From an uncultured Clostridia bacterium (GTDB lineage: Bacteria; Bacillota; Clostridia; Christensenellales; UBA1242), in assembly GCA_934772045.1 (NCBI GenBank), contig CAKVMH010000002.1:91062-155061 (forward strand): DNA of 64,000 nt, given 5' to 3'. A program made the position numbers and the translations under genes. Positions 13,576-35,957 of this stretch are shown piece by piece. The notes below the pieces were generated by a model that was not told the DNA's origin, did not search any database, and saw only the letters and a list, made by a program, of their open reading frames with translations. The first letter of the stretch is position 1. Each line of letters begins with the position of its first letter.

Positions 13576-14665
13576 CCAAATAATAATCATTTGTTGCACC
13601 TTTATCCTTGCCATTTTTGGTTGCATAATGGTGTATAGCGCAAGTAAATATTCTGCCACACTGCATTACAACAACCCTTTCTTTTACCTTAAAAAACAAA
13701 TAATAGGTGTGGTTGTTGGGGCAATAGGATTAATTGTCTGCTCGTTCGTCAATCATAAAATTTACAAAAAATTTTATTGGGTTTTCTATATCGTTGGCTT
13801 AATCTTTTTGTGCCTTGTGTTTGTGCCAGGGCTTAAACGCACAAGTTACGGCGCAACACGCTGGATAGGCATAGGCTCACTTACCATGCAACCAAGTGAA
13901 ATTGCAAAGTTTTGCCTTGTTTTCTTTTTGGCGGGCTATTTAAGCGACGGCGACAAACTTGGCAGTTTTAAACATGTCATTATAACGCTTACTCTTGGCG
14001 GACTGTATTGCTTGCTAATTATGTTAGAACCAAACATGAGCATAACCATGTGCGTTGCTTTCACGCTTATTTTTATGTTGTTTATTGGTGGCATGCGCCT
14101 AAAAGTTTTTTGTCTTTTAATTGTGCCAGCCGTCGCAATGGTTGTTTTGCTTATAATCATTGAACCTTACCGTTTAAGTCGAATAATAGCCTTCATAAAC
14201 CCATGGGAAAACCCACTTGACGAAGGATACCAACTCATTCAATCACTCTATGCTATCGGCAGTGGTGGAATGTGGGGCGTAGGGCTGTTTAAAAGCCGTC
14301 AAGCCGAATTGTTTTTGCCGTTCAGTGAAAGTGACTTTATATTTTCAATCATTGCCGAAGAACTTGGCTTTGTTGGGTGCTTGTGCCTTGTTGCAGTCTT
14401 TGCATTGCTTATCTTTACCATTTTCAAAGTTGGCATGCGCGCCAGCAACAAATTTTCATCATTCCTTTGTTTTGGCATAGGCGCACTCATAAGCATACAG
14501 GTTATTTTAAACATCGCAGTAGTTTCAGGCTCCATTCCGCCAACTGGCTTGCCTTTGCCGTTTATTAGTGCTGGCTCAACATCACTTCTCGTCTTCATGT
14601 CAGCAATCGGTATTGTTATCAATGTCGATAGGCAAACTAACAAGGAAATAAGTTTAAACAAATAG
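13556..14665 (+). CDS. ftsW: SEDS-family peptidoglycan glycosyltransferase FtsW/SpoVE
   Basis: About 10 TM segments. Motifs QPSEIAK, SESDFIFS, GLPLPFISAGSTS. Follows murD. Confidence 0.9.
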   Translation: MLKQKTNQIIIICCTFILAIFGCIMVYSASKYSATLHYNNPFFYLKKQIIGVVVGAIGLIVCSFVNHKIYKKFYWVFYIVGLIFLCLVFVPGLKRTSYGATRWIGIGSLTMQPSEIAKFCLVFFLAGYLSDGDKLGSFKHVIITLTLGGLYCLLIMLEPNMSITMCVAFTLIFMLFIGGMRLKVFCLLIVPAVAMVVLLIIIEPYRLSRIIAFINPWENPLDEGYQLIQSLYAIGSGGMWGVGLFKSRQAELFLPFSESDFIFSIIAEELGFVGCLCLVAVFALLIFTIFKVGMRASNKFSSFLCFGIGALISIQVILNIAVVSGSIPPTGLPLPFISAGSTSLLVFMSAIGIVINVDRQTNKEISLNK

Positions 14666-14672
14666 CAGAAAA

Positions 14673-14708
14673 ATGTATACATGTCGCAAATAAGTATACA
14701 TTTTTTTT
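14673..14708 (+). terminator. Intrinsic terminator after ftsW
   Basis: ATGTATAC ... GTATACAT stem followed by T8. Confidence 0.6.
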
Positions 14709-14746
14709 ATTGTATGCTAAAATATCAGTACACATAGGAGGTTATT

Positions 14747-15118
14747 ATGGGAAATTTATCAAAAGCAGATTTACAATGGAATAAAATGATGGATTTATGG
14801 GTTGAAGAAAAATTGGAATCACCATATTTAGAACTTATTGAATATTTTAATGGTATCAATGGAGAGGGACATTTTTGCCATTTTGATAATGTGAGTGATA
14901 ATAAAGACTTAAAAAAATATGTTACAACATTAACGACAATTCTGCCAGAACCATTAAAGAGCAACATTGAACTTGCTTATAAAACATACAAAATTAATCC
15001 AGACGATATAAGCGATGAAAATGAAGAAATATTAAATAATTGTGATAGCGTTTATTATAAAAATGAAGAACTTATTAGTGAAATTTTAAGAAAAAGAGCA
15101 AGTAAAATTAAGTTATAA
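14747..15118 (+). CDS. Small acidic hypothetical protein, possibly DUF4375/DMP19-like (immunity-type fold)
   Basis: RBS TAGGAGG. 123 aa. YFNGINGEGHFCHFDN resembles the vNNGGf.qFf.N core I recall for DUF4375 (low confidence). Bracketed by duplicated ftsW 3' ends. Confidence 0.6.
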   Translation: MGNLSKADLQWNKMMDLWVEEKLESPYLELIEYFNGINGEGHFCHFDNVSDNKDLKKYVTTLTTILPEPLKSNIELAYKTYKINPDDISDENEEILNNCDSVYYKNEELISEILRKRASKIKL

Positions 15119-15179
15119 AGGAGCAATAAATCTGCTCTTTTTTAATTCTGAAATATATAATACTGCACGGACATTAGGT

Positions 15180-15287
15180 GGCTCCATTCCGCCAACAGGC
15201 TTGCCTTTGCCGTTTATTAGTGCCGGCTCAACATCACTTTTAGTCTTTATGTCTGCAATCGGTATTGTTATCAATGTCGATAGGCAG
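15180..15287 (+). pseudogene. Displaced copy of the ftsW 3' end (36 codons)
   Basis: 108 nt colinear with 14528..14635. There are 7 nt differences in 6 codons, all synonymous (ACT/ACA, GCT/GCC, CTC/TTA, TTC/TTT, TCA/TCT, CAA/CAG). No upstream ORF. Confidence 0.9.
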
Positions 15288-15303
15288 CATAAAGACAGCT
15301 GGG

Positions 15304-15396
15304 GTCCCCACAAAACGAATGTTTTGAAGGGGAAAGGAAAAACTGAGCAATAGGCAAGCATTTGCGGAGCAAATCTGCAAAAGCGAGAGTTTTGAC
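15304..15396. repeat. Two hairpin-repeat family members between the ftsW stubs
   Basis: GTCCCCACAAAACGAATGTTTTGAAGGGGA shares AAAAC(G)AATGTTTTGAAG with 34085-34103. GCGGAGCAAATCTGCAAAAGCGAGAG resembles the GAGCAAA...AGCGAA core. Confidence 0.45.
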
Positions 15397-15399
15397 GCT

Positions 15400-15440
15400 A
15401 TGTCCGCAATCGGCGTTGTTTTAAATGTAGATAGGCAAAC
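15400..15440 (+). pseudogene. Second, more diverged stub of the ftsW C-terminus
   Basis: Reads MSAIGVVLNVDRQT against MSAIGIVINVDRQT in ftsW. Changes are synonymous or conservative (I>V, I>L). Confidence 0.7.
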
Positions 15441-15650: not shown

Positions 15651-16910
15651 ATGAATAAAGATAAATTTATAATTCGCGGTGGAAACACGCTTTGTGGCAC
15701 ATTGAAGGTGCAGACAAGCAAAAATGCAACTTTACCTATTCTAACTGCCAGTTTGATGAGCGGTGGCAGGGTAGAAATCAAAGATTATCCGCATATTATT
15801 GATGTTGAAAATATGTGCGCTATTTTAAAGGCGCTTAATGTTGATGTTGAAAAAACTTTCGACACCATATTTTTAGACCCACAAAACGCGAATAACGATA
15901 ACATGGACTTTGAATTGATGCGCACAATGCGTTCATCAATTTTTTTGCTTGGAAGCATGCTGGCACGCTTTAAACGCGCCACAATTACCCAGCCAGGCGG
16001 TTGTAAAATTGGCAAGCGCTCAATTGACATACATTTATCATCTTTGAAGAAAATGGGCGTCAAAATTGTTGAGCTGGGCGAATACATATTTTTAGATGCG
16101 ACAAAGGCACATAATGCAAAAATTAAACTTAAAATGCCAAGCGTTGGGGCAACTGAAAACCTTATTCAATTTGCGTGTTTAACGCCAGGTAAAACGGTTT
16201 TAAAAAATGTTGCGCGTGAGCCTGAAATTGTTGATTTGTGTAAGTTTCTTAAAAGTATGGGTGCAAAAATTTATGGCGAAGGCACAAGTATAATTACAAT
16301 ATTTGGTGTGAATAAGTTGTGTGGCACACATTATACTCCAATTGGTGACCGCATTGTCGCTGGCACGCTTATGGTTGCAACTGCCATTGCTGGCGGGCAT
16401 GTTAGGTTGACTAATGCAGTACCAAACCAAAACGCAAATTTAATTGAAAAGTTAAGGCGAATTGGTTGTCAAATTGAAATTGAAAATGATATACTAACAA
16501 TAACTAGGACTGGTGGGCTTGTTTCATGTGGCGAAATTGCCACTGGGTTTTACCCAGATTTTCCAACCGATATGCAGTCGCAAATGTTGGCGCTCAGTTG
16601 TTTTGTTGATGGCGAAACAGATGTGTACGAAAATGTGTTTGAAAACCGCTTGTTAACTGCGCATGAATTGAACAAAATGGGTGCAAACATTTCAGTTTTA
16701 ACTAGCACACATGCAAAGGTTAAAGGTGGTTGCCGTTTGGTTGGGGCAAATGTTAAGGCGTTAGACTTGCGCGGTGGTGCAAGTTTGGTTTTGGCAGGTT
16801 TGGGGGCTAGTGGCGTCACAACCGTTACCGATGTGCATTACATTGACCGCGGTTATGTTGGTTTAGAAACAATGCTTACGGCACTTGGTGCTGACGTTAG
16901 GCGAGAATGA
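15651..16910 (+). CDS. murA: UDP-N-acetylglucosamine 1-carboxyvinyltransferase
   Basis: Colinear with MurA (FIIRGGNTLCGTLKVQTSKNATLPIL). Active-site Cys context PGGCKIGKRSIDIH. Confidence 0.93.
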   Translation: MNKDKFIIRGGNTLCGTLKVQTSKNATLPILTASLMSGGRVEIKDYPHIIDVENMCAILKALNVDVEKTFDTIFLDPQNANNDNMDFELMRTMRSSIFLLGSMLARFKRATITQPGGCKIGKRSIDIHLSSLKKMGVKIVELGEYIFLDATKAHNAKIKLKMPSVGATENLIQFACLTPGKTVLKNVAREPEIVDLCKFLKSMGAKIYGEGTSIITIFGVNKLCGTHYTPIGDRIVAGTLMVATAIAGGHVRLTNAVPNQNANLIEKLRRIGCQIEIENDILTITRTGGLVSCGEIATGFYPDFPTDMQSQMLALSCFVDGETDVYENVFENRLLTAHELNKMGANISVLTSTHAKVKGGCRLVGANVKALDLRGGASLVLAGLGASGVTTVTDVHYIDRGYVGLETMLTALGADVRRE

Positions 16911-17710
16911 CAAAGAAATCGATTATTATCACATCAATATTATGTTCAATTTTGGCACTGTTGGCTATTTTATTCGGTGTCGTTTTTCGCTTGCGTAAAA
17001 TTGAAGTTGTGATAACAGATAAATCTGAAATTGTGCTAACTAATGATGACATTATTTCGGCTTCACAACTAAAATTAAACAAAAGCATTTTTATGTTGGA
17101 CAAGCAATCTGCAATGGACAACATTGAAAATAAGTATGCTGAAATTAAAGTGGTAGATATTAAAACAACAAGTGTCACTTCGGTTAAAATTATGGTTCGC
17201 AAAAGGGTGGAGATGTTCTATGCTGAATATAACTCAAATTACTATTGCTTAGATGAAGACCTTAAAGTTTTGCGCATAACTGAAATTGAGCCTGTGAACT
17301 TAATCAAAATTTCGGCTGAAAAGTTAAATATAAATAGCGACATAAAGGAAAAGATGTTTTTAAATAAAGACCTTGCAAAATTAACATACAATTTCTTTGT
17401 TGCCATGTATGAAAATGTTAAAATTGATGATGACCATTATGCTGAAAGGGCGGACATTTGTAACCTTGTGGGCAGTTTAGATTTTGAAACTGATTATGCA
17501 TTGACAGATAATGGCAATAATGCAGTGAAATTCATTAATTTGATTGTTGTAACGCGCGAAGGTTTAAAAATGCAAATTGCATCGCCGGAAAAAGATTTGG
17601 GCAGGAAGATTAACATTTGTTTTGCAACTTACAAAAAATTGGAAGATAAAACTACTGGCAAAATTGTAATTAAATTTGATGGCACGGTTGCATATTACCC
17701 AACAGTGTAG
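16907..17710 (+). CDS. ftsQ: Cell division protein FtsQ/DivIB-like
   Basis: N-terminal TM followed by a POTRA-like region. Lies between murA and ftsA. Confidence 0.65.
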   Translation: MTKKSIIITSILCSILALLAILFGVVFRLRKIEVVITDKSEIVLTNDDIISASQLKLNKSIFMLDKQSAMDNIENKYAEIKVVDIKTTSVTSVKIMVRKRVEMFYAEYNSNYYCLDEDLKVLRITEIEPVNLIKISAEKLNINSDIKEKMFLNKDLAKLTYNFFVAMYENVKIDDDHYAERADICNLVGSLDFETDYALTDNGNNAVKFINLIVVTREGLKMQIASPEKDLGRKINICFATYKKLEDKTTGKIVIKFDGTVAYYPTV

Positions 17711-23871: not shown

Positions 23872-24959
23872 AATATGATTTGACTGGCTACAACATAGAC
23901 AACCTTTTGAAAACACTTTACCTTAAAAAATTTAATCTTTCTAACATTGAACGCAAAGCGCACAATAGCGTCAGTTTTGAAATACCGGACAACCAAGCAA
24001 AAAAGGCGAAAAAATACATTGCAAATTTTAAAGGTCAACAAACTGCTGGCATTTTAAAGCGTTTGCCAAAGTTGATTTTGACGAATATTAGTTTATTAAT
24101 TGCAGTGTTTGTTGGTGCGCTGTTTTTTGCATTTTCATCTAATTATATCTGGCAAATACGCATTTTTGGCACAAAAGATTTAGACCCAAATGAAATAATA
24201 ACACTGCTTGAACAAAACGGCGTAAAAAAGGGCAAATTAAACTTAAAATCGACGGAAGAAATTGAAACAATTTTGCTTGAAAATTACAACCGCTTGGCGC
24301 AAGTGTCAGTTATTAAACAGGGCAGTGCCATTATTATAAACCTTAGCGAAAAGTTGGTTTACACTGAAGAAACCTATCAAGCGATTACGGCAAAATATTC
24401 AGGAATTATCACAAAAATTAACATAATTACAGGCACCACAAACATAAAAGTGGGCGACTATGTAAACGTGGGCGACGCGTTGGTTTTGCCTTTCAATTTA
24501 GATAAGGAAGGCAACAAAATTTCTGTCGACCCCATGGCGGAAATTGAAGCAAAGATGTTTGTTGTGGGCAGTGCCAAACTGGACAAAAATGGGACGATTT
24601 TAACCCGCACAGGCAACAAACAAATTGTGTATGATTATTTTATTTTTGACAAGCACATATTTTCTGGCAAAAACAAAAATTCATTTGCTCTTTTTGAAAA
24701 TGTAAGTTATAATAATTTTGTAAGTGATGTTTTGCCATTGGTGCGTCGCACTACTGAGTTTTATGAACTTAAACTGACGCCAATCACATACGATTTTGAA
24801 GCGGAAAAACAAGCGTTAATTGAACAAAGCAGGCAGAATGCAATAAAATCTCTGCCAGCGGAATATTTAGAAATTGAAACCGCACAAAAAACTGAAATCG
24901 TTGGCGAAACCATGTATGCTTACACAACTTACACGATAGAAGGGCGGATAAATGGTTGA
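23868..24959 (+). CDS. yqfD: Sporulation protein YqfD
   Basis: Architecture and the YIWQIRIFG motif after a single TM. yqfC-yqfD synteny as in Bacillus. Confidence 0.75.
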   Translation: MKYDLTGYNIDNLLKTLYLKKFNLSNIERKAHNSVSFEIPDNQAKKAKKYIANFKGQQTAGILKRLPKLILTNISLLIAVFVGALFFAFSSNYIWQIRIFGTKDLDPNEIITLLEQNGVKKGKLNLKSTEEIETILLENYNRLAQVSVIKQGSAIIINLSEKLVYTEETYQAITAKYSGIITKINIITGTTNIKVGDYVNVGDALVLPFNLDKEGNKISVDPMAEIEAKMFVVGSAKLDKNGTILTRTGNKQIVYDYFIFDKHIFSGKNKNSFALFENVSYNNFVSDVLPLVRRTTEFYELKLTPITYDFEAEKQALIEQSRQNAIKSLPAEYLEIETAQKTEIVGETMYAYTTYTIEGRING

Positions 24960-26328
24960 ATTTTTTAACGAAACACAATTAGATGAAGGAATTTTACAAA
25001 ATTTGCAAACGGTTGAACAACAAGTTTACACCTTTTTGCATGCACCTAAAAGTGTTAAAGTTAACCTAAAATTTGTAAGCCCAGAAGAAATACGCACAAT
25101 CAACAAACAAACACGCAAAATTGACAAAGTAACAGATGTTTTATCGTTCCCTTACACAAACATAAAAGTGGGCGAAAAATTAAGGTTGAAAGACTATGTT
25201 TGCGACATTGACCCAACCGACCATAAATTGCTTTTAGGCGATGTTGTCATGTGTGTTGACCGCGCTAAACAACAAGCAGAAGAATACGGACACAGTTTAA
25301 AACGCGAAATTTGCTTTTTGTTTTGCCATGCGATGTTGCACCTTATGGGGTATGACCATATTGACCCAGAAGATGAAAAATTGATGACAAAAAAGCAAGA
25401 AGAAATCTTAAATTCACTAAACATTACACGCACAAATTTCAAGGCTGGCTTTGTTACAATTGTTGGTGAAACAAATGTTGGCAAATCTACATTAATCAAT
25501 CAATTAATAGGTGAAAAAGTTGCAATTGTGAGCCCTAAAAGCCAAACCACGCGTGAAAATATAACTGGCATATATAACGACAAAACCTGCCAAATTGTGT
25601 TTCTAGATACACCTGGCTATCATAAACGCGCAACAAAAATTGATGACGCAATGGACAAACAAATTGAAAATGCGCAGGAAGACACTGAAATTGTTTTGAT
25701 GCTTATCAGTGCAAAAAAGCCGTTGATAAACCAGTACTTGGAACTAATTAAAAAGGTTACAGCAAGCGCAAAGAAGGTTTTGTTAATCAACAAAATTGAC
25801 GAAGTTAAATATGAAAAATTATACCCACAACTTGCCGAACTAAGTGGTGTGGCAAAAGTTGATGAAATTTTGCCAATATCTGCCAAAACAGGCAAAAATT
25901 GTGATGTTCTGCTTGAGATGATTAAGAAATTTTTACCTTGTTTTGACCATGAAATGAGATATTATCCAATTGACGAATATACGGACAAAAACCTGCGTCA
26001 CATGTGCGCCGAAATTGTGCGCGAAAAGGCACTTTTGTTGCTAGATGACGAAATTCCACATGGCATTCAAGTGGTTGTAACTGACTACCGCGAAAATGAA
26101 ACACCAATTCAAATTTACGCTGATGTTTATTGTGAGCGCGAAAGCCACAAAGCCATAATTTTGGGCAAAAATGGCGAGATGATAAAGCAAATTTCCACAA
26201 AAGCAAGGCAAGCAATTGAACAGCTTGTTGGTGTAAAGGTTAACCTTCAATTGTATGTCAAAGTTAAAGTAAATTGGCGCAATGATGAACGCGCATTAAA
26301 AGACTTTGGCTTAATAATTGAAGAATAA
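24952..26328 (+). CDS. Fused endoribonuclease YbeY / GTPase Era
   Basis: Single 458-aa ORF. N-terminal HAMLHLMGYDH metalloprotease motif (YbeY). From about aa 165, GFVTIVGETNVGKSTLIN, DTPG, NKID and a KH-type C-terminus (Era). Confidence 0.85.
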   Translation: MVEFFNETQLDEGILQNLQTVEQQVYTFLHAPKSVKVNLKFVSPEEIRTINKQTRKIDKVTDVLSFPYTNIKVGEKLRLKDYVCDIDPTDHKLLLGDVVMCVDRAKQQAEEYGHSLKREICFLFCHAMLHLMGYDHIDPEDEKLMTKKQEEILNSLNITRTNFKAGFVTIVGETNVGKSTLINQLIGEKVAIVSPKSQTTRENITGIYNDKTCQIVFLDTPGYHKRATKIDDAMDKQIENAQEDTEIVLMLISAKKPLINQYLELIKKVTASAKKVLLINKIDEVKYEKLYPQLAELSGVAKVDEILPISAKTGKNCDVLLEMIKKFLPCFDHEMRYYPIDEYTDKNLRHMCAEIVREKALLLLDDEIPHGIQVVVTDYRENETPIQIYADVYCERESHKAIILGKNGEMIKQISTKARQAIEQLVGVKVNLQLYVKVKVNWRNDERALKDFGLIIEE

Positions 26329-27477: not shown

Positions 27478-27680
27478 ACACTAAAAACTACCAGATGTTC
27501 TGGTCGTTCGGTTGATGTTTACAGATTGACATAAATTTCGTGTCCTCTTGCGAGTGGAAGGGCGTCACAACCTGTGCTGTGTAATCGTTTTGCAAAAGCA
27601 AAACTCAATTTACGCTTGGTTGTTCCTTTCCCCAACAAACCCACCATGTTAGGCTTTGTTGGGGTACTCTGATGAGTACC
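27478..27680. repeat. Unclassified structured element, copy A (modules 1 and 2)
   Basis: 27478-27562 aligns with 60083-60163. 27545-27664 aligns with the reverse complement of 35686-35800. Contains hairpins 27588-27603, 27630-27664 and 27663-27680. Confidence 0.6.
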
Positions 27681-31405: not shown

Positions 31406-34048
31406 ATGAAAAAGTATGTTTACTTATTCAGCGAAGGCGACGCAACCATGCGTAATTTGCTTGGTGGTAAAGGCGCAAACCTTGCTGAAATGACAAAAAT
31501 TGGCTTACCAGTGCCACAAGGCTTCACAATTTCAACCGAAGCTTGCACACAATACTATGAAGATGGCAGGCAAATTAACGCTAATATTCAAGCAGAAATT
31601 ATGGAATATATTGCCAAAATGGAAAAAATCACAGGCAAAAAGTTCGGTGATATTGAAAATCCATTGTTGGTTTCAGTTCGTTCAGGTGCTAGGGCATCTA
31701 TGCCAGGCATGATGGACACAATTTTGAACCTTGGTTTGAACGATCAAGTTGTTGAAACATTGTCACGTAAGAGTGGCAACCCTCGTTGGGCATGGGACTG
31801 CTATCGTAGGTTTATCCAAATGTTCAGCGATGTTGTTATGGAAGTTGGCAAAAAGTATTTTGAAAAACTTATCGACCAACTTAAAGCCCGCAAAGGCTAC
31901 ACATCTGACCTTGACATGGACGCAGATGACTTGAAAGAACTTGCAAACGAATTTAAGGCTGAATACAAAAAACAATTGGGCAAAGATTTCCCAGTTGACC
32001 CTAAAGTTCAACTTTTCGAGGCTATCAAAGCAGTTTTCCGCAGTTGGGATAACCCACGTGCTAACATTTATCGTATGGACCACGACATTCCATATAGTTG
32101 GGGTACAGCGGTTAATGTTCAAATGATGGCTTTCGGTAACATGGGCGAAACATCTGGTACAGGTGTTGCATTCACACGTAACCCAGCCACAGGTGAAAAG
32201 GGCTTGATGGGTGAATTTTTGATGAACGCACAAGGCGAAGATGTTGTTGCTGGTGTGCGTACACCTATGCCTATTGCAAAAATGGCGGAAATTTTGCCAG
32301 AATGTTACGAAGAATTTAAGAAAATTTGCGACACTCTTGAACATCACTATCGTGATATGCAAGACATGGAATTTACAATTGAAGACAAAAAACTTTACAT
32401 GCTTCAAACACGTAACGGTAAGCGTACCGCTGCCGCTGCAATCAAAATCGCTTGTGATTTAATCGATGAAGGCATGATAAGTGAAAAGGAAGCATTAATG
32501 CAAATTGATGCTAAATCTTTGGATATGCTTTTGCACCCAACTTTCGACGCTGAAGCACTTAAAAATGCAGATAAAAATAATGTCGTGGGCAAGGGTATTG
32601 CTGCCAGCCCAGGCGCTGCCGCTGGTACAATCGTGTTCACAGCAGAAGACGCTGTTAAAGAAGGCAAAGCAGGCAAAAAAGTGGTTCTTGTCCGCTTGGA
32701 AACCAGCCCAGAAGATATTGAAGGCATGAAATATAGCCAAGGTATTTTGACAGTGCGCGGTGGTCAAACATCACACGCAGCCGTTGTTGCGCGTGGCATG
32801 GGCACATGCTGTGTTTCAGGTTGTGGCGACATCAAAATGGACGAAGAAAACAAATGCTTCACACTTGCTGGCAAAGTTTTCCACGAAGGCGACGCTTTGT
32901 CACTTGACGGCTCAACTGGCAAGATTTACGACTGCATTATCAAAACTGTTCCTGCAGACCCTAACAGCGGTTATTTCGGTCGTATCATGCGTTTGGCAGA
33001 TAAATATAAAGCACTTGGCGTAAAAACTAATGCTGACACACCAAAAGATGCTCAACGCGCACAAGAACTTGGCGCACAAGGCATCGGTTTGTGCCGTACT
33101 GAACACATGTTCTTCGACCCAGCGCGTATCGGTGCATTCCGTGAAATGATTTGCGCAGATACAGTTGAAGAACGTGTGCATGCACTCAATAAAATCGAAC
33201 CTATGCAACAAGCAGACTTTGAAGGCTTGATGGAAGCACTTAAAGGTCAACCTGTTACTATCCGTTTCTTGGATCCACCACTTCACGAATTTGTTCCAAC
33301 CAGTGAAGAAGACATCAAAGAATTGGCACAAACACAAGGCAAAACTGTTGCTCAAATCAAACAACTTATCGCCGATTTACACGAATTTAACCCAATGATG
33401 GGGCACCGTGGTTGCCGTTTGGCAGTTACTTACCCTGAAATTGCCGTTATGCAAACTAAGGCTGTAATTAAAGCTGCCATTGCTGTTCAAAATCGTCATC
33501 CAGACTGGAAAGTTGTTCCAGAAATTATGATTCCACTTGTTGGCGAAATTAAGGAACTTCAATTTGTTAAACGCGTTGTTGTTGACACCGCAGACAAGGT
33601 TATTGCTGACGCAAAATCTAACCTTAAATACGAAGTTGGCACAATGATTGAAATTCCACGCGCAGCATTAACTGCTGACGAAATTGCAAAAGATGCAGAC
33701 TTCTTCTGCTTCGGCACTAACGACTTAACACAAATGACTTTCGGTTTCAGCCGTGACGATGCTGGCAAGTTCTTGCCTTCATATTACGCAAACAAAATTT
33801 ATGAAAGCGACCCATTTGCTCGCCTCGACACAAACGGTGTTGGCAAACTTATGGAACTTTCAATTCAACTTGGCAAATCAACAAATCCAAAACTCCACAC
33901 AGGCATTTGTGGTGAACATGGTGGCGACCCTTCAAGTATTGAATTCTGCCACAAAATTGGCCTTGATTATGTAAGTTGCTCACCATACCGCGTTCCAATC
34001 GCAAGGCTCGCTGCCGCTCAAGCAAACATTAAGTTCCCAAGGAAATAG
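31406..34048 (+). CDS. ppdK: Pyruvate, phosphate dikinase
   Basis: 880 aa. GGKGANLAEM, phospho-His loop GGQTSHAAVVARGMG, and CRTEHMF in the PEP-utilising domain. Confidence 0.97.
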   Translation: MKKYVYLFSEGDATMRNLLGGKGANLAEMTKIGLPVPQGFTISTEACTQYYEDGRQINANIQAEIMEYIAKMEKITGKKFGDIENPLLVSVRSGARASMPGMMDTILNLGLNDQVVETLSRKSGNPRWAWDCYRRFIQMFSDVVMEVGKKYFEKLIDQLKARKGYTSDLDMDADDLKELANEFKAEYKKQLGKDFPVDPKVQLFEAIKAVFRSWDNPRANIYRMDHDIPYSWGTAVNVQMMAFGNMGETSGTGVAFTRNPATGEKGLMGEFLMNAQGEDVVAGVRTPMPIAKMAEILPECYEEFKKICDTLEHHYRDMQDMEFTIEDKKLYMLQTRNGKRTAAAAIKIACDLIDEGMISEKEALMQIDAKSLDMLLHPTFDAEALKNADKNNVVGKGIAASPGAAAGTIVFTAEDAVKEGKAGKKVVLVRLETSPEDIEGMKYSQGILTVRGGQTSHAAVVARGMGTCCVSGCGDIKMDEENKCFTLAGKVFHEGDALSLDGSTGKIYDCIIKTVPADPNSGYFGRIMRLADKYKALGVKTNADTPKDAQRAQELGAQGIGLCRTEHMFFDPARIGAFREMICADTVEERVHALNKIEPMQQADFEGLMEALKGQPVTIRFLDPPLHEFVPTSEEDIKELAQTQGKTVAQIKQLIADLHEFNPMMGHRGCRLAVTYPEIAVMQTKAVIKAAIAVQNRHPDWKVVPEIMIPLVGEIKELQFVKRVVVDTADKVIADAKSNLKYEVGTMIEIPRAALTADEIAKDADFFCFGTNDLTQMTFGFSRDDAGKFLPSYYANKIYESDPFARLDTNGVGKLMELSIQLGKSTNPKLHTGICGEHGGDPSSIEFCHKIGLDYVSCSPYRVPIARLAAAQANIKFPRK

Positions 34049-35528: not shown

Positions 35529-35614
35529 TGGTCCCGAAGGTCGGGGTCGAACCGACATGATATTGCTATCGCAAGATTTTGAGTCTTGTGCGTCTGCCAT
35601 TTCGCCACTTCGGG
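35529..35614 (-). tRNA. tRNA-Leu (anticodon CAA), CCA encoded
   Basis: Manual cloverleaf. Acceptor CCCGAAG/CTTCGGG. Anticodon stem CAAGA/TCTTG with loop CTCAAAA. Long variable arm GATA-gcaa-TATC. T arm GTCGG-TTCGACC-CCGAC. Confidence 0.9.
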
Positions 35615-35685
35615 ATAGGTAATTAAGATGTACGATGAATTAACTAATTGACCAGTGTTTCAGCACAAGACAATTAGGGTTCCCA

Positions 35686-35780
35686 CCGCAACAAGTTGCG
35701 GAAGGGATAAGGAACAACCAAACAAAGGTTGAGATTGCGAACTTGCAGAGCAATCGCACAATAAGTGCAGGTTGTGACGC
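35686..35780. repeat. Unclassified structured element, copy B (module 2, opposite orientation to copy A)
   Basis: Shares blocks with the reverse complement of copy A: AAGGAACAACCAA (35709-35721), TTGAG, CAGGTTGTGACGC (35768-35780). Hairpins sit at equivalent positions but have different sequences. Confidence 0.6.
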
Positions 35781-35827
35781 GCGTCTGCCATTTCGCGATT
35801 GGGCGAAGGATTTTTCGCCACTTCGGG
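35781..35827 (-). pseudogene. tRNA-Leu 5'-half copy (acceptor and D arm) with a 22-nt insertion
   Basis: Reverse strand CCCGAAGTGGCGAA[aaatccttcgcccaatcgcgaa]ATGGCAGACGC matches nt 1-25 of the intact tRNA-Leu. No anticodon or T arm follows. Confidence 0.75.
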
Positions 35828-35882
35828 TTATATCATTAAGATGTTCGAAGTGACGAAGGAATTTTCGTCACTTCTAAACATT

Positions 35883-35957
35883 TGGAGGCACCAACCAGAT
35901 TTGAACTGGTGAGTGAAGGTTTTGCAGACCTTTGCCTTACCACTTGGCGATGGTGCC
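35883..35957 (-). tRNA. tRNA-Cys (anticodon GCA), CCA encoded
   Basis: Manual cloverleaf. Acceptor GGCACCA/TGGTGCC. Anticodon stem AAGGT/ACCTT with loop CTGCAAA. T arm ACCAG-TTCAAAT-CTGGT. Confidence 0.9.

Follow-up and report, generated by a model that had tools for sequence, protein, structure and literature searches.

The 64-kb stretch of DNA analysed here (the window) carries three members of a family of small mobile elements that we found inserted in tRNA genes, at a 5S rRNA gene and at the 3' ends of protein-coding genes. The elements share a fold on one strand, and well-preserved copies bear a short tail complementary to the intact target, followed by a copy of the target end that is of foreign origin. 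This copy would replace the gene part severed by the insertion, so that the gene survives. We propose, with confidence that is about evenly balanced, that the family represents non-autonomous, site-specific, guide-directed insertion modules copied in from a single-stranded template.

Distribution of the repeat family

The first-pass annotation had described a structured element shared, in opposite orientation, by the region downstream of recO and the tRNA-Leu locus. The alignment of 27545-27664 (+) with the reverse complement of 35686-35800 on which it was based holds, with 72% column identity. Two of the three blocks listed as nearly identical, GCGTCACAACCTG and TTGGTTGTTCCTT, occur exactly twice each in the window, at copies A and B, and two-mismatch matches to them in the window outnumber those in every shuffle. 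The third block, CTCAA, is common to A, B and L002 only (L numbers denote loci from other genomes) and is not conserved across the family alignment, so that its description as a conserved single-stranded block does not stand. The element is also not a two-copy feature of the recO and tRNA-Leu loci, as had been assumed, since the window holds a third copy and further ones were found in other genomes. Copies A (27552-27664, +), B (35779-35661, -) and C (15397-15284, -) are the window members of a single repeat family, for which the search for homologues in relatives brought the count to 12 distinct copies in six genomes, the nine beyond the window being in five other uncultured gut Clostridia.

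An exact-pattern scan of species-representative genomes returned four loci, all from uncultured gut Clostridia or Lachnospiraceae MAGs. Diverged members were found with a covariance model built from six copies (R1), and comprised copy C, second copies in L001, L003 and L004, and the copies located after the PPDK gene in L048, L053 and L061. The match to copy C (15294-15405, -) scored 49.5 bits with R1 and 82.5 bits with model R2, with which A and B reached 84.7 and 104.1 bits. R2 splits true copies (57-105 bits) from decoys holding exact blocks of the closing helix P1 (at most 24 bits). Pattern scans for the P1 blocks in metagenome and viral collections gave only chance matches, all of them at most 24 bits with R2; two additional viral scans for the family gave zero matches, and BLASTN of copy B against phage and plasmid records gave none. 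The distribution is patchy, since about 150 kb from other relatives, reached via MurA and further RecO homologues, contained no copy. Every locus analysed is a metagenome assembly, and the copies correspond to about six independent insertion events, with one filled/empty pair within a single species.

At gathering score, Rfam 15 recognised only two tRNAs in the whole window, tRNA-Leu(CAA) at 35529-35614 (-) and tRNA-Cys at 35883-35957 (-). Permissive Rfam scans of copies A, B and C yielded chance-level matches only (E at least 0.48), and no Rfam ribozyme match was found for the element. In agreement with the first-pass annotation, the element thus lies outside known RNA families.

A conserved fold on one strand

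Copy A, located in the spacer between recO and WG, has the following parts.

27552-27664 (+): copy A core, with predicted fold
27552-27562 (+): 5' extension GAGTGGAAGGG
27563-27566 (+): CGTC
27567-27572 and 27618-27623 (+): P1, ACAACC with GGTTGT
27588-27605 (+): P2 hairpin
27630-27664 (+): P3 hairpin

Both A and B fold better than shuffled sequence (z ~ -3.6). Three helices are strongly supported, P1, P2 and P3, and 18 of their 24 pairs show compensatory changes among 15 aligned members. In this alignment 92.9% of the paired cells can pair, compared with 40-52% in controls in which the partners were slid by 1-3 columns, and the covariation score was reached by 0 of 500 shuffles. The closing helix ACAACC/GGTTGT, the internal hairpin and the 3' hairpin that had been read from A and B are predicted in both copies and covary across the 15 members, which bears out the earlier view of a conserved folded nucleic acid rather than a plain repeat. 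P1 varies in a coordinated manner (ACAACC/GGTTGT, AAAACT/AGTTTT and GCAAT/ATTGC), and the invariant unpaired or core parts are the 5' CGTC, the CTT after P1, the TTGC/GCAA core of P2, the TCCT linker and GGGAACCCT. Because the paired columns contain 17 G-U cells versus 3 A-C cells, it is a single strand that folds, namely the one reading CGTC...GGGAACCCT; this strand would act as RNA or single-stranded DNA. Its sharp (N)CGTC 5' end is compatible with a putative self-cleaving ribozyme at this position (HDV-like, hatchet).

The 11-nt 5' extension is GAGTGGAAGGG in copy A and GAGTGGAAACC in L004a, and is predicted to pair with the P1-P3 linker. The weak D-arm-like homology that had been noted between copy A and the tRNA part of copy B is due to this extension. 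At its 3' end (27661-27680) copy A lacks the AACCCT motif and reads GGGGTACTCTGATGAGTAC, with a small GTACTC/GAGTAC hairpin; a CTGATGAG string in this region resembles a hammerhead core, with no support from its context.

Layout of the insertion unit and its targets

On the folding strand, the unit consists of the folded core, about 4 nt, a tail of 9-15 nt and an element-borne copy of the target end. The scaffold, from (N)CGTC to GGGAACCCT, measures ~105 nt, and the element ~140 nt. In well-preserved copies the native target end and 0-2 variable nt come first, followed by the CGTC scaffold, the tail and, in some cases, a spacer, and then by the element-borne target end and the remaining target gene. 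The 5' boundary is sharp, at CGTC plus the 0-2 variable nt, with the native target end abutting the scaffold; the 3' boundary is fuzzy and lies within target homology that extends past the junction. Depending on the copy, the element is sense or antisense relative to its target gene. The targets, and the tails with the target sequences that they match, are as follows.

Copy B: tRNA-Leu, after nt 25; tail GTCTTGTGC, target GCACAAGAC
L002: tRNA-Leu, after nt 25; tail (A)GTCCTGTGC, target GCACAGGAC(T)
L001a: tRNA-Gly(GCC), from the 3' side; tail AAGGCTTCGGTCGCG, target CGCGACCTCAGCCTT
L003b: 5S rRNA 3' end; tail ATTTGGCTGGAAAC, target GTCTCCAGCCAAAT
Copy C: ftsW 3' end; tail GTCTTTATG-CTGC, target GCAG(A)CATAAAGAC
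L048: PPDK 3' end; tail AAGGCTCTTGCCGC, target GCGGC(GGC)GAGCCTT
L061: PPDK 3' end; tail CCGTTTAGC, target GCTAAACGG
L053: PPDK 3' end

All eight of these copies are flanked by direct repeats of 36-80 nt of the target end, and A, L003a, L004a and L004b show no clear flanking repeat and no clear tail match. At PPDK and ftsW, the element-borne gene ends differ from the native ones at synonymous or conservative sites only. We therefore rejected target-site duplication followed by neutral drift as their origin, the repeat differences being all synonymous; native and element-borne ends diverged instead within functional genes of different lineages. Adenine mutagenesis of the DGR type was likewise discarded, since the differences at copy C and PPDK are not confined to adenines. 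Between the sister elements L048 and L053, the element-borne gene ends show more differences than the scaffolds, which is not predicted by the copy-in model proposed below in its simple form.

The anatomy is well seen at copy B.

35676-35779 (-): copy B core, from CGTC (35779-35776) to GGGAACCCT (35684-35676)
35661-35671 (-): tail (putative guide) GTCTTGTGCTG, reverse complement of GCACAAGAC at 35591-35583
35781-35848 (-): upstream repeat, displaced native tRNA-Leu 5' flank and tRNA nt 1-25
35590-35635 (-): downstream repeat, element-borne tRNA-Leu 5' flank and tRNA nt 1-25

The matched GCACAAGAC spans the insertion point inside tRNA-Leu(CAA). The downstream repeat forms the 5' part of the functional tRNA-Leu(CAA) gene (35614-35529), and the upstream repeat has a 22-nt insertion in its D-loop part and is separated from the core 5' end by one extra G (35780). 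At the unoccupied site in L049 and L061 the native order is a hairpin after tRNA-Cys, CTTAAT and tRNA-Leu; as this order is kept in front of copy B, its upstream repeat is the displaced native copy. What had been taken for a tRNA-Leu 5' half fused to the RNA as a domain is thus a duplication of the tRNA-Leu 5' flank and first 25 nt, and neither ARAGORN nor Rfam found a tRNA or pseudo-tRNA cloverleaf in the B segment beyond the tRNA-Leu and tRNA-Cys genes.

The hairpin that follows tRNA-Cys is found at 35846-35874 (-) in the window, 15170-15200 in L049 and 17278-17311 (-) in L061. In the relatives the 5' arm is identical to tRNA-Leu nt 1-15 and the 3' arm is similar to the acceptor 3' strand of tRNA-Leu (CCCGAAGTGGCGAAAAATCCTTC..CACTTCGGG). 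The hairpin looks like an internally deleted mini-tRNA-Leu conserved between both tRNA genes, and may serve in processing or be left over from an old insertion. The whole tRNA-Cys/tRNA-Leu operon, including promoter and terminator, is on the opposite strand in L049 (15061-15293) relative to the window (35529-35957), L053 and L061, and L049 lacks the 319-aa gene found between PPDK and the tRNAs.

The third window member, copy C, is a more diverged example.

15301-15397 (-): copy C core, with diverged P1 AAAACT/AGTTTT
15284-15296 (-): tail (putative guide) GTCTTTATGCTGC, reverse complement of GCAG(A)CATAAAGAC at 15256-15243
15399-15437 (-): upstream repeat, displaced ftsW end, whose + strand encodes MSAIGVVLNVDRQTINFYYKN and a stop
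15248-15286 (-): downstream repeat, within a 107-nt ftsW 3' fragment (15180-15286 on +)

Tail and target form a helix of 13 bp with one bulged A, a score that 0 of 2000 shuffles reach. The 107-nt fragment is 95% identical to ftsW at 14527-14634, with synonymous differences only, and the two repeats differ by t/g, t/g, a/t, c/t, g/a and g/a. Duplicated ftsW 3' ends also lie downstream of unrelated small cargo in the window (14666-15286, a 123-aa ORF without Pfam match), in L064 (9209-9313, an AAA_18 gene and an acetyltransferase) and in L066 (8131-8271, zinc-ribbon genes). None of these cargo units has the CGTC scaffold, and units that replace gene ends seem to have a general hot spot at the end of ftsW.

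Near the copies we found no gene for an integrase, transposase, recombinase, reverse transcriptase or HUH protein; Pfam searches of neighbouring ORFs in the window, L001, L002, L004 and L048 identified only housekeeping genes. Of the small ORFs near copies, the 123-aa ORF of the window and a 135-aa ORF of L061 are unrelated to each other. A gene of L048 at 16289-17083, which lies at the contig end and 1.3 kb away from the PPDK-end copy, specifies 264 aa with an HNH/HNH_5 nuclease domain at the C terminus; the window has no counterpart at the corresponding place. In L004 (6067-7277), two inverted scaffolds with their 5' ends outward surround two XRE-type HTH genes and an 81-aa ORF; this pair sits between the secA 3' end and the next gene, with no flanking repeat recognised. 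Copies A and B of the window likewise face outward, with core genes between them. As an inverted pair 8 kb apart they might have bounded a mobile or invertible island, an idea that we rejected because relatives keep the gene order without the element and the L061 tRNA operon is oriented as in the window though it lacks the element.

Filled and empty sites

Insertion polymorphism demonstrates that the family is mobile, with filled and empty versions of both the recO-WG spacer and the PPDK end. The recO-WG spacer that holds copy A measures 351 nt in the window versus ~100 nt in L048 and L049, in which the gene order is kept. Another feature of the window preserved in all relatives fetched is a fusion of the YbeY endoribonuclease and the Era GTPase (with KH domain) in one 458-aa ORF (24952-26328). 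The PPDK end of the window represents the empty state.

34000-34020 (+): empty PPDK 3'-end target, cgcAAGGCT/CGCTGCCGCTC, occupied in L053, L048 and L061

L053 comes from the same species as the window (98% RecO identity), and has A and B plus a post-PPDK copy that is absent from the window. In gene orientation, the filled site of L053 reads PPDK body, foreign gene end, reverse complement of the tail, reverse complement of the scaffold, and native end with downstream flank. The foreign end covers the last 15 codons and the stop; 12 of its 46 nt differ and leave the peptide, RLAAAQANIKFPRK, unchanged, whereas outside these last 46 nt the PPDK genes of the window and L053 differ by 1.7%. Foreign sequence sets in abruptly at 6 nt past the insertion point. 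As both boundaries hug the unit, ordinary two-sided homologous recombination is an unlikely route of transfer. Three PPDK ends are present in L048, the second and third of them separated by a CGTCAAAA... remnant. The sequence at this place (14963-14990), CGTCAAAATTTATTTAAATAATTTTCAA, begins like a scaffold of the type shared by C and L061 and looks like an internally deleted older insertion at a regenerated target.

The tail is complementary to the uninterrupted target

The tail of 9-15 nt, located ~4 nt past GGGAACCCT, corresponds to the reverse complement of intact target sequence on both sides of the insertion point. A match to the junction-spanning target was found in 7 of 8 copies; shuffled sequences attained such scores in 0-40 of 2000 cases. 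Tails score higher with their own targets than with those of other copies, and the start of the match invariably lies 0-5 nt after CCCT. The matches of B and L061 are short (9 nt). Tails covary with orthologous targets, both for tRNA-Leu (CAA in B versus TAA in L002) and for the codon versions of PPDK ('agg ctc' versus 'cgt tta'). Copies C and L061 have a common scaffold lineage, yet differ in target (ftsW versus PPDK), tail and repeats. Since empty sites lack the tail, it was brought by the element.

The tail of L053 matches the native target of its species and not the junction of its own foreign gene-end copy, as would be expected if the target of the recipient is what it recognises. In single-strand folding predictions the tail also pairs with the regenerated downstream junction, in an imperfect helix with a bulge. 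We did not find a second guide in the scaffold loops, where own-target matches showed no excess over cross-pairs on either strand. P1 was dismissed as a second guide mimicking the target, given that L061 and L048/L053 occupy the same PPDK site with different P1 sequences. Comparison of the 5' flanks of the matched sites revealed no shared adjoining motif.

Comparison with known systems

The likeness to the bridge RNAs and seekRNAs of IS110/IS1111 elements lies in a structured non-coding RNA, a programmable target-complementary sequence that steers target choice, and the existence of solo modules. Those RNAs sit beside a DEDD recombinase, have split guides for both strands of target and donor, and leave the gene end unduplicated; the present element, in contrast, has a 3' tail in a single stretch, brings a copy that replaces target sequence, and has no enzyme encoded nearby. 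Pfam searches of neighbouring ORFs in the window, L001, L002, L004 and L048 revealed no DEDD (RuvC-like) recombinase, and the only match was that of the contiguous tail, with no short both-strand matches in internal loops. The omega RNAs of TnpB and IscB (IS200/IS605, IS607) consist of a scaffold of ~100-150 nt followed directly by a 3' guide, an architecture that the element resembles. However, an omega RNA takes its guide from the DNA next to the transposon end and leads a nuclease to sites with a fixed motif alongside, whereas the tail is an inverted match to the intact target with no common adjacent motif; there is no tnpB or iscB gene nearby, no flank-derived guide and no Rfam match.

As do integrative elements at tRNA genes and gene 3' ends, the family brings its own gene-end copy, displaces the native repeat, stacks in tandem and uses conserved targets, and direct target-end repeats of 36-80 nt flank eight copies as expected for a tyrosine-integrase element. 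It differs from them in lacking an integrase, in a cargo of only ~140 nt, in the use of one scaffold at many targets, in the target-complementary tail and in foreign sequence that passes the junction: no integrase gene was found, and in L053 the foreign tract extends 6 nt beyond the junction rather than showing a crossover within a shared core. In IS200/IS605 elements, mobilised by HUH Y1 transposases, a guide within the element end base-pairs with the target and thereby recognises it. The likeness is in strand specificity, folded DNA and base-pairing target recognition, but those elements have 4-nt guides, a fixed tetra- or pentanucleotide target and simple hairpins, and do not duplicate the gene end.

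Target-primed copying (group II retrohoming, R2, prime-editing guide RNAs) serves here as a working analogy only, in which target pairing by a guide is followed by cutting of the opposite strand, priming from that cut at the template's 3' end, and copying up to its 5' end. Guide and primer-binding part of one molecule are complementary to each other, a trait shared with prime-editing guide RNAs. The element differs from target-primed systems by having no linked reverse transcriptase, a size (~140 nt) far below that of introns, and no intron domains; a six-domain group II ribozyme of at least 400-600 nt with domain V does not fit into it, and Rfam gave no intron match. We know of no natural bacterial element built like a prime-editing guide RNA.

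Further classes were set apart as well. P1 reads TCACAAC/GTTGTTC, and elsewhere GCAAT/ATTGC, in place of the RYYYAAC/GTTRRRY boxes of integron attC sites, and the copies are solitary, without arrays or intI. The ends, CGTC... and ...GGGAACCCT, are not inverted repeats and the flanking repeats are 36-80 nt of gene end, unlike MITEs. No reverse transcriptase was found and the PPDK differences are synonymous third-position changes of all kinds, which does not match the TR/VR pairs of a DGR. Dada transposons were rejected as well, as they aim at small RNA genes but do not restore them. Since the element fails the defining tests of each family considered, we rate it outside the known kinds, although a link to a known enzyme family could emerge through an autonomous partner encoded elsewhere in these genomes.

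Proposed mechanism and alternative explanations

We infer from comparison of the copies that the tail pairs with its target during insertion, that the template is single-stranded and that the unit is copied in. The template, RNA or displaced single-stranded DNA, would comprise the scaffold, the tail, the target copy and a few target bases past the junction. The tail would pair with one strand of the intact target and open it. The other target strand would then be cut and its 3' end would anneal to the 3'-terminal target copy of the template, where trimming of mismatched bases would account for the 6 foreign nt past the junction. Extension of this primed end to the 5' end of the template and ligation of the run-off end at the junction would give the product native end, scaffold, tail, element-borne end and remaining gene; the target being regenerated, further insertions could stack. 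The enzyme would be supplied in trans. It may be a reverse transcriptase acting on an RNA template, as for a prime-editing guide RNA or in R2/group II target-primed synthesis, or alternatively an HUH-type enzyme with displaced single-stranded DNA. A weak point of the RNA route is that the promoter must lie outside the unit. The copy-in model fits the boundaries, the positions of native and foreign ends, the dual-complementary guide, the strand-specific fold and the re-used target. A more specific version, which we consider rather unlikely, is a bacterial non-autonomous retroelement acting as a natural prime-editing guide RNA: a scaffold-plus-guide RNA would direct a nick, the nicked strand would prime on the 3' target copy of that RNA, and the whole RNA would be copied in with its spare gene end. 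Changing ~12 nt would then retarget it.

The alternatives account for fewer facts. Scaffold, tail and gene-end copy might form a small double-stranded circle that is recombined into the target by a recombinase of IS110/IS1111 or other type whose gene lies elsewhere, guided by an RNA of scaffold plus tail. The tail is indeed target-complementary and programmable, a circle recombined at the junction would yield the observed order of parts, and solo guide-RNA modules located away from the transposase are reported for ISPpu9 (PMC12288879). Nevertheless, the guide is one contiguous stretch on one strand, whereas seekRNAs are reported to have short matches to both target strands (PMC11187229). The lack of a second match in the scaffold loops and of a DEDD recombinase nearby, the 0-2 variable extra nt at the 5' junction and the foreign sequence 6 nt past the junction also speak against this explanation, which we regard as unlikely. 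Duplicated gene ends and tRNA parts of which one copy is foreign and synonymously diverged are the classic mark of integrative elements. Their presence here, together with the ftsW-end duplications around 1-1.5 kb of unrelated cargo in L064, L066 and the window and the two scaffolds around XRE genes in L004, could point to decayed integrase-type genomic islets of a cis-mobilisable-like kind, with the repeats as attL/attR and the scaffold as a conserved island end (arm, small RNA gene or origin). This is quite unlikely: a sequence-specific integrase does not explain one scaffold family at no fewer than five unrelated targets, tail complementarity is unexpected, covariation with a G-U bias argues for single-stranded function, no locus has an integrase, and the other ftsW islets lack the scaffold.

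The strand-specific fold, the imperfect bulged helix of the tail with the downstream junction, and a regenerated target at which insertions stack would also suit a folded single-stranded DNA recombination site (attC or CTX phage attP-like), in which the tail-junction helix would mimic a duplex target for a structure-recognising tyrosine recombinase. We judge this very unlikely given that attC-type R/L boxes and arrays are absent, the same-molecule pairing is broken in L053, the foreign tract extends beyond the junction, and no recombinase was found near the copies. An ordinary chromosomal family of small or regulatory RNA genes, duplicated and immobile, would agree with the conserved, covarying structure and with the location of copy B inside a tRNA operon, where it must be transcribed. 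It is scarcely credible, being contradicted by the filled and empty sites, the variable orientation to neighbouring genes, the unrelated contexts (tRNA, 5S, gene ends) and the target-specific repeats and tails.

Implications

The arrangement of the element fits no described element. Even read most conservatively, the element represents a structured nucleic-acid family with good support that Rfam does not contain, and it accounts for puzzling partial duplications of tRNA genes, 5S genes and gene ends in Clostridia assemblies, which could be mistaken for pseudogenes in annotation. If the tail is a working guide, the family would represent a very small programmable insertion system, in which a scaffold of ~105 nt and a guide of ~12 nt would suffice to put DNA at chosen sites and leave the target gene undamaged. 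It would then point to a partner enzyme and offer a possible lead for genome-writing tools, and it would bear on how mobile DNA colonises essential genes of gut bacteria.
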